A program made the position numbers and the translations under genes. Of a stretch of DNA of 62,256 nucleotides, positions 11,294-22,972 are shown in pieces (positions within the stretch are counted from its first letter, which is position 1; each line of letters begins with the position of its first letter). The notes under the pieces were generated by a model. The model did not search any database and was not told the DNA's origin. It saw only the letters and a program-made list of their open reading frames with translations. The stretch lies in UHGV virus genome UHGV-0344594; one strand, 5' to 3'. Source of the DNA: a virus.

Positions 11294-14200
11294 CTACCGA
11301 TACACCGTACCAGGCTGCTCTTCCTGAAGGCGAGGAACGAGCTTCTGGTTGTAGTTCATGCCACCGAGGGCAGAACCACGATATTTTTCACGACGAGTGA
11401 GAGAGCTGCGGACAGCATCGCCATCGATGCGCATTTCCGGGTACTTCTCAGAGTATGCGCGCATCTTATCAGTTATCTGGTCAACTTTCTTCTCATCACC
11501 GGCTTTCCAGGCCTTATAAAAATCACCCAGCAGCTTACTGCGCTCTTCGGTGATCGCCTTCTGCTTGTTCATGTTGTAGCTGTTCATCTTGTACTGCTCG
11601 GTGACTTTGGCCGGGGTAAAGCCCATCGCCTGCTTAAAGATATTCCAGCCGCCGACGTCATCGACAATCGGATCCCCATTTTTGGTGGATACGCCTTCAT
11701 TGTAGTAGCGCCAGGCCTTCATCGGGTCTTTGATTGCCTTCGGCACCATCGTCTCGATACCCCGCCAGGTGTACCCGTCGTTAATCTGGCTCACGCCGCG
11801 ATACCAGTTGTAAGGGATGCCAGCGGACGCGCCCAGCACCTGCTGCAGCCAGTACAGGAACTGCGCATCGCCCTCGCGGTCCATGTCGTCAGAACGGAAC
11901 CACAGATCCCCGAAGCCGATACGGCCGGACAGCTCGACGCCGGACAGGTAGCCCGGCACGCCGTCCATCATGATGCCGACCATCTGTTTCGGGAAATGCT
12001 GCAGCATGGTTTTCTTCAGCTCGACTTCAGGATCCTCGCCGTCATCGGAGAACATACCGGCAATCGCCATCAGCAGGCCGTACAGCGGCAAACCACGGAT
12101 ACCGGCGTTGAAGGCCAGCGTAGCGCCAAGGCCCAGCATCTGCGTGCGCGCTTCCCGGCGCTCCTGCTTGTTACGCGGGTTAACCATTTCGTAGGCGGTG
12201 TACGCCAGATCGGCCAGCATGTTCAGCGAGTAGTTGCGGAACACCAGCAGGGCTTTACCGGTGTTGCTGTGCATAATCGCCGGGCGCGAGCTGTTCTGGT
12301 AATCATAGTGCGAGTCCCAGGTGAGATCCGCCGCTTTCCGGATGGCGTTTTTCGGGTCAAGACCACGCTTTTTCGCCATGCGGTAGGCCGCCAGGAAAGT
12401 GGCCTCGCGGTTAATCCGCTCCGTATGGTGGAACATGAACGACAGCGCCGCCATCAGCTTCGCCCTGATTGGGCTGTACTTCACGCCACTGTCACCGATC
12501 CCAGCCACATCGTGCGACTGGGTACGGGTGATAAGCCCCATGCGGTAGGCTTCAGAAACAGCCCTCTTCTCTTCCGGCGTTACGCGCGCCGACTTCTCGG
12601 CAAAGGTGCGCCCCATGCCAAGATCAAACATCGCCCGGTTCAGGTACCCCAGCGCAACCGGAATACCTGCAGCAGCGCCCTTATCGTAAAACGCCGCCAG
12701 TTTGGCCGGGGCAACGATAAAGGTCTGGCTCATGTTCACCAGCGCGGCCGCCGGGCTTTGCGCCAGGTACCACATAAACGCACCCTGGGTGGCAACCTGC
12801 GAAATGCGGTTGCTGGTCGGGTTCATCACGTAATCGTGGTTCATGCGCGCCTGCTCGACCACCAGCCCGCTACGCACCGGGCTGCGGGTACGCTTCGCTT
12901 CCCGTTCCGCCTGATCGATAAGGTCGCCCAGCTCCATGCTGTACTTCATGCGCGCCAGCTGGTGCGAACCGTGGAACATGTGCGAGGCAAACGCCCGCAA
13001 TGCGTCCTCTTCGAAGCCTGCCCGCCCTTTACGGTGGATCCTGGACTTACGCAGGGAATAGTCCGGCATCGTCTGCAGGTACAGCTGCCACACCTGATCC
13101 TGTGTCTGCTGGGTGCCCTCGATGCCCTTCAGCAGATCCTCAATACGCGCCACAAAGTCGGCCGGAACCTGCTTTCTCAGGTCGTTGGACTTCGACACGA
13201 TGCCGGTTTCCACGTCATAGCCCTCTTTCTCCAGCTGCTTGCGCAGCCTGGTCTGTGCGAAGGCGGTTTCCGTGCGCGAGAAGCTGACAACCTCACCGGA
13301 TCCTTTTTTGCGGGCCGTAACGAAGAAGTCACCGAAGCGCGCCAGCGGGAAGTATGGCCCGGCCAGGCGATTGCTTTCGAACTCAGATCGCAGCTGGTTG
13401 ATGCGGGCGCGGCGGTTCCATGCGTCTTTGCGCAGTCCATTGTTGAGCGCTTTCTTGGCGGCCGCGATAGCGTCCTCTTTGTCCTTACCCTTCAGGCCTT
13501 CATCGGTGATGCGCTGCATTTCATCTTCGAACTTGCGGCGGACCTGGCGGGAACGGATATCCATCGCCTTTTCCATGTTGTCGATGATCGCCTGCTCCTG
13601 GGCGTCTGCCAGGCGGGAATACAGGTCGCGCACGCGGTTGTAGATTTGCTTCCCTTCGGGCGACAGCGCGTTATACCGCTCCCGCAATTTGCCGTGCTCC
13701 TCCTTCCGTTTGGCATCGTCCTGTGCCTTCTGGTTCGCCTCATCCCATGCCGGATCACCGCGTTTCTTCTCGCGCAGCGCGGTAAGGTCGATAGCGTTTA
13801 GGATCGACTGGAAGTCTTTGGATGGGTCAACCTGCGCCAGCGTCGAATCGTGCATAAGGCCCATCAATTCAGCGTTTTCCTGCGGCTTGCTAACGCGATA
13901 CTTCAGCCACTTCTGCGACTCCTGGTCTGTTTTGGCGTGCCATTCGTCGCGCAGGGTATCCATCTGCAGCTTGACGTCGGCGTAGCGGCCCAGCGCCGGG
14001 ATATCTTTCCCCACGCGCTTCAGGATGAAACGGCCAGGGGTGAAGCGGAGAAGAGCAGGCATAACCGTCTTCAGCATGTTATCCGGCAGATCGGCAACTT
14101 CATCCCAGCGCTGGTTAAACCAGCTCTGTTTCTCTGCTGCCTTCGGCGGCTGGCTTGATTCAGGCGTGCTGAATGCTGTGCTGGTGGCCGGTGCCTTCTG

Positions 14201-22972: not shown

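Follow-up and report, generated by a model that had tools for sequence, protein, structure and literature searches.

The 62,256-nucleotide (nt) stretch of DNA examined here (UHGV virus genome UHGV-0344594, hereafter the window) is the genome of a Lastavirus-like temperate podophage of the Klebsiella type, and a single gene of 11.7 kb takes up 19% of these 62 kb. The gene was taken from a six-frame list of open reading frames (ORFs), lies on the minus strand at 11294-22972, starts with GTG and encodes 3892 amino acids (aa) in which a lytic transglycosylase, a helicase, a methyltransferase, an ADP-ribosyltransferase (ART) and a zincin-like domain are joined in one polypeptide with no cysteine codons. 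An initial annotation of the sequence had read it as one protein of 3892 aa, and the minus-strand frame is indeed intact, with no internal stop: translation runs uninterrupted over 11,679 nt and meets one stop, the terminal one. A ribosome-binding site, GAGGA, can be read from the sequence at 22979-22983 (minus), 6 nt before the GTG, and 24 nt separate the stop codon of the upstream gene from the start codon of the giant gene. At the other end, a strong intrinsic-terminator-like hairpin with a 10 bp stem (7 GC pairs) and a T run lies at 11133-11166 (minus), 128 nt past the stop codon and followed by TTTTTATTTTT, between the giant gene and the endolysin gene. A terminator is also annotated at the equivalent spot downstream of gp75 in phage Bcep22.

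A frame of this length invites the question of whether several genes were fused by an assembly or annotation artefact. The window derives from a metagenome contig and phage F116 has the equivalent region as three ORFs, both of which would suit such a fusion, yet we find it barely conceivable: no stop occurs across the 11,679 nt of the frame, cysteine codons number 0 in frame 0 vs. 128 and 138 in the two other frames, and cultured, independently sequenced phages carry collinear single ORFs of 3695-4914 aa. Since intact orthologous ORFs in this size range are present in eight sequenced phages including JC1, the long frame is neither chance nor an assembly artefact. Seven of these orthologs were checked directly (vB_KpnP_ZX1, hereafter ZX1, LASTA, Parlo, PEp14, Skulduggery, Atu_ph08, and Bcep22), and the JC1 protein (4515 aa) was taken from the literature.

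Domains were called at the curated cut-offs of Pfam, which six domains pass in the giant ORF. The initial annotation had proposed lytic transglycosylase, helicase, methyltransferase and ART-like domains; each is backed by Pfam profiles above cut-off, and all the motifs it quoted were found in the translation at the residues it gave. The lytic transglycosylase (SLT) domain lies at 22550-22837 (minus; aa 46-141; Pfam SLT E 3.5e-14, 52.8 bits vs. a cut-off of 21.3), with the catalytic Glu motif ESSFNP at aa 65 and GLMQY at aa 84, and this region also matches a PHROG transglycosylase at E 1.5e-15. It is followed at 17873-22495 (minus; aa 160-1700) by a region without a known family, in which Gln/Glu/Pro-rich linkers are interspersed with short conserved blocks (about aa 290-620, 645-937, 950-1070, and 1284-1440), several of which are common to LASTA, ZX1, Parlo, and Bcep22 gp75. 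The layout of this region is that of "beads on a string," and a basic Arg/Gly/Ser-rich stretch (about aa 1530-1690) closes it. Pfam returned nothing in aa 160-1700 or in aa 2454-2570, even at E <= 10, and a phmmer search of the whole protein against Protein Data Bank (PDB) sequences gave no match at E <= 0.01.

The central enzymes are a superfamily 2 (SF2) helicase/translocase of the Strawberry-notch (Sno)/SNF2 type at 16169-17845 (minus; aa 1710-2268) and an amino-methyltransferase at 15431-16030 (minus; aa 2315-2514). The N lobe of the helicase matches Pfam ResIII (aa 1710-1815; 28.7 bits, cut-off 22.5), and the C lobe matches the Strawberry-notch profile Helicase_C_4 (aa 2163-2268) marginally, at 32.5 bits vs. 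a cut-off of 30.5; the latter match is also found in the ZX1, Parlo, and Skulduggery orthologs. Motifs I (GTGKT, aa 1723), II (DESH, aa 1807), III (SATP, aa 1911), and VI (QIEGRIYRTGQ, aa 2206) are all present. The methyltransferase matches Pfam MTS over aa 2343-2453 (31.1 bits, cut-off 23) and a PHROG DNA methyltransferase at 6e-23. It has an N-terminal "TP" helix (FATPEP, aa 2323), motif I EPSAGHG at aa 2347 and motif IV NPPF at aa 2407, features that match those of EcoKI/TaqI-like adenine methyltransferases (TP helix plus NPP[YF]), and it is probably an N6-adenine DNA methyltransferase. Among the defence-system models of PADLOC, aa 2315-2495 (15488-16030, minus) match best to mad2 (2.4e-18) from the methylation-associated defence system (MADS), and this match is stronger than those to the generic type I/II methyltransferase models. 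In PHROGs, the giant protein as a whole is assigned to "DarB-like antirestriction."

The third cargo enzyme is an ART of the ART-PolyVal family, which together with its conserved C-terminal tail lies at 14777-15310 (minus; aa 2555-2732; Pfam ART-PolyVal aa 2570-2722, E 5e-21, 76.3 bits). YHGT is found at aa 2579, AFFTSD at aa 2610, and YEED at aa 2680. The family is very large: at E <= 1e-3 it numbers 12,928 cluster representatives, and in some proteins as many as about 20 stretches match. In an alignment of 200 copies, His2580 is kept in 198, Tyr2639 in 162, and Asp2672 in 198, and the presence of all three near-invariant residues in the query strengthens the ART-like assignment beyond what had been proposed. 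These residues would belong to strands 1, 2, and 5 of the fold, respectively. Loss of the catalytic Tyr was considered on the basis of AFFTSD here vs. GFYFTD in F116, and this reading was dropped because Phe is the consensus at that position in the 200-copy alignment and the conserved Tyr is at aa 2639.

The tail of ART-type domains has the form "...F.PEQ[IV]KSA.GN.G.FD...PDIRFS" and is found here at aa 2705-2732 (14777-14860, minus), where it ends in NPDIRFS. A count over 150 giant proteins gives 143 DIRFS-type motifs where 3.6 would be expected, and in several of these proteins the motif is also found after zincin-like domains or ahead of LPD39. The tail could be a structural element or a processing site. 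A role for D-I-R-F-S as a general junction or cleavage site was examined and rejected: the motif is mostly the C-terminal tail of the ART, and because 124 of the 143 occurrences adjoin an ART end it constitutes weak evidence for cleavage.

The remainder of the protein comprises a zincin-like domain, LPD39 and a PLxRFG domain. The zincin-like domain, a putative metallopeptidase, lies at 14153-14770 (minus; aa 2735-2940), with HELFH at aa 2800-2804 and the Glu of EELGAY at aa 2867. Across 20 diverse copies, the Glu and the second His of HExxH are invariant, as is the Glu about 63 residues downstream (2867), and conservation exceeds 90% for the first His and for a Tyr; moreover, 46 of 46 copies in related giant proteins have HExxH or HExxxH. 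An AlphaFold2 (AF2) model of the domain runs from three strands to the HExxH helix and on to the Glu-bearing helix, and was built on a shallow alignment (9 sequences) since the word-indexed homolog searches yielded few sequences (15, then 4). The domain reached significance in no profile library (best WLM, E 0.06), gave no significant match to a known zincin fold, and when its profile was compared with the PDB returned spurious TAL-effector repeats and then weak IrrE and HtpX matches. What stands of the zincin first proposed is thus the conserved HExxH...E signature, which no significant profile or fold match accompanies.

LPD39 follows at 13475-14080 (minus; aa 2965-3166; Pfam E 3e-59, 200.4 bits), and its long helical hairpins in the AF2 model correspond to what had been described earlier as a coiled coil. 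The PLxRFG ("tail-700") domain at 11339-13360 (minus; aa 3205-3878) matches NCBIfam NF032893 at E 4e-203, with 676.6 bits vs. a cut-off of 100 and model positions 1-679 of 681 covered; PLARFG itself is at aa 3209. Its AF2 model is almost all alpha-helical, with a predicted local distance difference test (pLDDT) score of 72.5. A hydrophobic tail had been reported for this end of the protein, and moderately hydrophobic helices are indeed present (aa 3410-3428 and 3623-3641), but they are weaker than stated, the highest 19-residue Kyte-Doolittle mean being 1.43 (aa 3623-3641). In tblastn searches the PLxRFG domain matches 73 phage records of about 44-66 kb, and in F116-group phages the matches are at or beside the genes for homologs of IVP-D (internal virion protein D). 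At the C-terminus, the PLxRFG domain is the family's constant module.

The surroundings of the giant gene lend indirect support to packaging. It is the last gene in the late structural block, with the virion structural genes on one side and the endolysin/holin/spanin cassette on the other. Upstream of it are genes for a tail protein, a tail fibre and an "internal virion protein," followed in this list by those for an acyl-CoA N-acyltransferase and for two proteins labelled "virion structural proteins." The genes are ordered alike in ZX1, LASTA, Parlo, PEp14, Skulduggery, F116, and Bcep22. The acyltransferase gene (25698-26162, minus) precedes genes for proteins of 416, 87, and 394 aa (24444-25694, 24181-24444, and 22997-24181, respectively, all minus), after which comes the giant gene. 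In PHROGs, the two large ones of these three are "virion structural proteins"; they have gp70 and gp74 as homologs in Bcep22 and are candidates for partner ejection proteins. The order acyltransferase/416-aa/87-aa/394-aa/giant mirrors that of T7 gp13 to gp16 (IVP-A to IVP-D). The 416-aa protein has a signal-peptide- or transmembrane-like N-terminus, ILTLLIAVAMFMQPQLAYA (25620-25694, minus; hydropathy 1.66), and its homolog Bcep22 gp70 is annotated as having a "potential signal peptide." The 87-aa and 394-aa proteins have a Gly-rich N-terminus in common (MAGLGSFLQG... and MAFGGGLGSFMQG...). Elsewhere in the window, an integrase gene at 6740-8005 (plus) adjoins a tRNA-Arg(TCT) gene at 8595-8671 (minus), a pairing which is consistent with a temperate lifestyle and possibly marks a tRNA-associated attachment site.

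The giant protein lacks cysteine altogether: 0 in 3892 aa vs. 36 expected (P about 2e-16) from the 0.93% Cys content of the 42 other ORFs of the window. Cysteine is equally absent from the orthologs of ZX1 (3867 aa), LASTA (4433 aa), Parlo (3764 aa), PEp14 (4914 aa), and Skulduggery (3695 aa) and from Bcep22 gp75 (4602 aa), and the Atu_ph08 ortholog (4877 aa) has 1. The same applies to the two upstream structural proteins (22997-24181 and 24444-25694, minus) and their Bcep22 homologs gp74 and gp70, which have 0, as do T7 gp15 (747 aa) and gp16 (1318 aa); P1 DarB (2255 aa) has 9. Over 150 ART-bearing giant proteins the mean Cys content is 0.24%. This absence is consistent with proteins that are kept unlinked in the capsid and across an oxidising periplasm, and may reflect selection against disulfide cross-linking during dense capsid storage and threading through the periplasm. 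The word "cysteine" does not occur in the texts of the study that defined polyvalent proteins (Iyer et al., 2017, PMC5512222) or of a study of N4 ejection (Bellis et al., 2026, PMC13434306).

Presence in virions is documented in the literature for homologs only. The initial annotation had suggested a search of the virion proteomes of related phages. Among Bcep22-like phages, the giant "DarB-like" protein of JC1, gp69, was found by mass spectrometry in CsCl-purified virions with 51 unique peptides and the second-highest score after the capsid protein (PMC9144972). The same paper describes Bcep22 gp75 as the protein that gp69 most resembles. Could the protein instead be an unpackaged cytoplasmic enzyme of the late or lysogenic phase, for example a methylase/helicase that acts on progeny DNA or in phage exclusion? 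The closest matches of the methyltransferase are enzymes of defence-type and orphan kinds (mad2 E 2.4e-18), and the virion evidence for this particular phage is indirect, both of which would suit such an enzyme. However, an N-terminal murein transglycosylase would be useless in the cytoplasm, the gene lies within a structural operon beside PHROG virion and internal virion proteins, a homolog has been detected in virions, and the total absence of Cys is common to the T7 ejection proteins gp15 and gp16. We therefore hold an unpackaged enzyme to be very improbable.

From this combination of domains, synteny and composition, we consider it likely that the product of the gene is the large ejection (internal virion) protein of a temperate, Lastavirus-like podophage, in the position of T7 gp16 (IVP-D) and expanded into a polyvalent protein. 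The initial annotation had similarly read the protein as a packaged, ejected, multi-activity counter-defence effector with a T7-gp16-like lytic transglycosylase; this agrees with the domains and with the published polyvalent and IVP-D concepts, but its DarB architecture does not hold. Several points weigh against an ejected polyvalent protein. Alignment of the C-terminal profile with T7 gp16 by hhalign was not significant (E 0.16). Bcep22 gp75, the reported closest relative of JC1 gp69, is without LPD39 and PLxRFG and ends in LPD38, and for PLxRFG-bearing homologs we found no reports of virion proteomics or function, the one exception being H66 gp60, which is labelled "structural protein" in GenBank. 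The helicase-then-methyltransferase module resembles DarB in its methyltransferase only, its antirestriction function is putative, and the literature searched holds no demonstrated antirestriction, ADP-ribosylation target or proteolysis for members of this podophage family. Finally, membrane insertion by the C-terminus is uncertain because its hydrophobic segments are weak (maximum 1.43).

Comparison with relatives shows how the ends and the middle of the protein have fared. The nearest cultured relative is the Klebsiella phage ZX1, with 94.5% nucleotide identity over 76% of the gene, and next are LASTA, SJM3, SopranoGao, and Serratia phage Parlo; in these relatives the gene is annotated as "PLxRFG protein" or "DarB-like antirestriction." An exact copy of the protein was found in a single ENA metagenome contig of 62,311 bp and nowhere else. 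Nucleotides 1-2484 of the gene are 89% identical to LASTA, and nt 4561-7638 and 8244-11679 are 95-97% identical to ZX1. At the protein level, aa 1-896 are 86% identical to LASTA, aa 2728-3892 are 97% identical to ZX1 and 69% to LASTA, and the middle differs. On these alignments the gene is a mosaic, LASTA-like in its N-terminal third and ZX1-like in the remainder. A second difference concerns the slot between the methyltransferase and the zincin-like domain (14768-15334, minus; aa 2547-2735), which contains the ART here; in ZX1, as in the metagenomic near-twin P0001, it is filled by about 110 aa that form a GNAT-like segment. This segment has the motifs ARNSGTGTAVM and FYKRFGF and matches Acetyltransf_7 below threshold (E 3e-4). 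One breakpoint directly follows "NAADGTMYSVP" and the other immediately precedes the zincin-like domain, so placed that the sequences point to a clean cassette exchange of two protein-modifying enzymes. The ART is absent from this slot in ZX1, Parlo, and P0001 (by Pfam for Parlo), and acyltransferase domains were reported in the Parlo genome announcement. Given the conserved ends, the differing middle and the ART/GNAT-like swap, the family is one of constant ends and exchangeable cargo.

The helicase/methyltransferase module varies in the same manner. Type A (methyltransferase then SNF2, with an Eco57I-type methyltransferase) is found in LASTA (2766-16067), PEp14, Atu_ph08, and Bcep22, and type B (Sno-like helicase then MTS-type methyltransferase; 15431-17845 here) in this protein, ZX1, Parlo, and Skulduggery. 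As the LASTA ortholog is collinear with DarB of phage P1 in three blocks (Eco57I-type methyltransferase then SNF2) and the order is reversed in this protein, the same gene carries two non-orthologous helicase/methyltransferase modules within one genus. At a greater distance, Bcep22 gp75 (5951-19759) has in common with the giant protein the blocks at aa 645-937, 950-1054, and 1293-1416 (giant-protein numbering), the methyltransferase and the zincin-like domain (39% identity, E 2e-25). Because gp75 ends in LPD3/LPD38, the "constant" C-terminal module is itself replaceable across such distances.

Such variation would also be expected if the protein were mainly a structural, gp16-like channel or tail-extension protein in which the enzymes are passengers with little or no activity. 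Across the family only the ends are conserved, the cargo is freely gained, lost and swapped, and F116 functions with this region split into separate genes. It is nevertheless improbable, in our estimation, that the enzymes are inert: the catalytic residues are intact in the helicase (motifs I, II, III, and VI), in the methyltransferase (motifs I and IV) and in the ART, which keeps its near-invariant H2580, Y2639, and D2672, and a gene of 11.7 kb, 19% of the genome, would be a heavy cost for inert sequence. The cargo blocks are also 86-96% identical between relatives, which suggests maintenance.

If the giant protein is an ejected polyvalent protein, as we prefer, its action may be envisaged as follows. 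Its gene, which closes the structural operon, would be expressed late, and a few copies of the protein would be packed in the capsid together with two or three small Cys-free proteins encoded upstream. Upon infection the proteins would exit via the roughly 35 Å tail channel, ahead of the DNA or together with it, travelling as loosely folded strings of domains, and the N-terminal lytic transglycosylase would cut peptidoglycan. The zincin-like domain, LPD39 and PLxRFG may form a constant module for packaging and/or an envelope-spanning conduit, and the variable middle would be cytoplasmic cargo. In the cytoplasm the Sno/SNF2-type translocase and the N6-adenine methyltransferase could act in cis on the incoming DNA and shield it from restriction, the H-Y-D ART could modify a host protein, and cleavage of the polyprotein or of host proteins may fall to the zincin-like domain. 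A further elaboration is that of a modular delivery chassis, in which the N-terminal wall-cutter and the zincin-like/LPD39/PLxRFG end frame slots for recombined enzymes, the lack of Cys permits unfolded threading through the tail, and the zincin-like domain cuts at ...NPDIRFS-like junction tails to free the effectors; taken as a whole, this proposal seems doubtful to us.

How does the giant protein compare with systems that have been described? Polyvalent proteins were defined as giant proteins of phages and plasmids in which unrelated enzymes are combined and for which co-injection with DNA is predicted (Iyer et al., 2017, PMC5512222). The giant ORF combines disparate activities in one polypeptide and has both ART-PolyVal and LPD39, class-specific domains named in that study. 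Further likenesses are the helicase/adenine methyltransferase pair, the zincin-like HExxH, the peptidoglycan hydrolase, and its encoding by a phage beside structural genes. The initial annotation had seen in the fusion of five activities a candidate multi-pronged counter-defence effector. The domain combination is not new, since a prophage protein showcased by Iyer et al. (PMC5512222) already joins SWI2/SNF2, adenine methyltransferase, zincin, and ART. The differences lie in order and type: the usual arrangement is LPD36-methyltransferase-helicase, whereas here the helicase comes before the methyltransferase and is of the Strawberry-notch type, which is rare in polyvalent proteins (Iyer et al., 2017, PMC5512222). 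LPD36 was not detected in the giant protein. It is thus a mosaic member of the polyvalent proteins, new as a member and of a kind already annotated in its closest relatives, and represents no new category or system.

P1 DarB had been put forward as the architectural model for the helicase plus methyltransferase module. DarB is packaged in the capsid and has, as is predicted for the giant protein, an N6-adenine methyltransferase and an SF2 helicase. However, in DarB the methyltransferase (aa 91-298) comes before the helicase (aa 855-1533), whereas here the helicase (aa 1710-2268) comes before the methyltransferase (aa 2323-2514) and is Sno-like. In BLASTP only the methyltransferase aligns (22% identity, E 6e-6), with no homology to P1 DarB detected outside it, and P1 DdrB has no similarity to the giant protein. 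DarB also differs in its 9 Cys, in lacking SLT, ART, LPD39, and PLxRFG, and in coming from a myovirus that has a Dar packaging system of its own.

Ejection proteins of podophages provide a further parallel. Internal virion proteins are hosts to lysozyme domains and to domains destined for the cytoplasm, and giant proteins of the F116 homology group (F116 p60, H66 gp60, PBC5 p23, and Vibrio douglas 12A4) were recognized as homologs of T7 IVP-D (gp16) by comparison of joined profiles, with E 8e-19 reported between joined profiles, F116-group proteins included (Hardies et al., 2016, PMC4819975). Like T7 gp16, the giant protein is encoded by the last and largest gene of an internal-protein block, after an acetyltransferase gene and genes for smaller helical proteins, has an N-terminal lytic transglycosylase, is highly alpha-helical, and is free of Cys, as are gp15 and gp16; it differs in being three times longer, and direct comparison gave no significant sequence match to gp16 and no fold similarity to its solved structures. 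For N4, an ejected protein of 3500 aa was described as beads on a string that pass through a channel of ~35 Å (Bellis et al., 2026, PMC13434306). This virion RNA polymerase, gp50, is likewise giant, carries cytoplasm-destined cargo in a beads-on-a-string arrangement, and has a C-terminal domain placed in the extended IVP-D family, but the cargo of the giant protein consists of DNA- and protein-modifying enzymes, not an RNA polymerase.

The closest counterparts are found in Lastavirus and related podophages (ZX1, LASTA, SJM3, SopranoGao, Parlo, PEp14, Skulduggery, and Atu_ph08), in which the gene occupies the orthologous position and its product, as here, has the SLT at the N-terminus and the zincin-like domain, LPD39 and PLxRFG at the C-terminus. 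Bcep22 gp75 and JC1 gp69 have in common with it the synteny, the N-terminal SLT, the N-terminal and central blocks, the zincin-like domain and the absence of Cys, but differ in a type A module, LPD3 and a C-terminal LPD38 in place of LPD39 plus PLxRFG. Giant proteins of this kind are widespread, although coding for one occupies about a fifth of a 62-kb genome, and the podophage versions are, in the literature searched, without an experimentally shown activity or target. Together these relatives form a natural comparison set, in which the same chassis carries different cargo (ART vs. GNAT-like; Sno-helicase-methyltransferase vs. DarB-type methyltransferase-SNF2), and which could be used for testing which host defences each cargo defeats.

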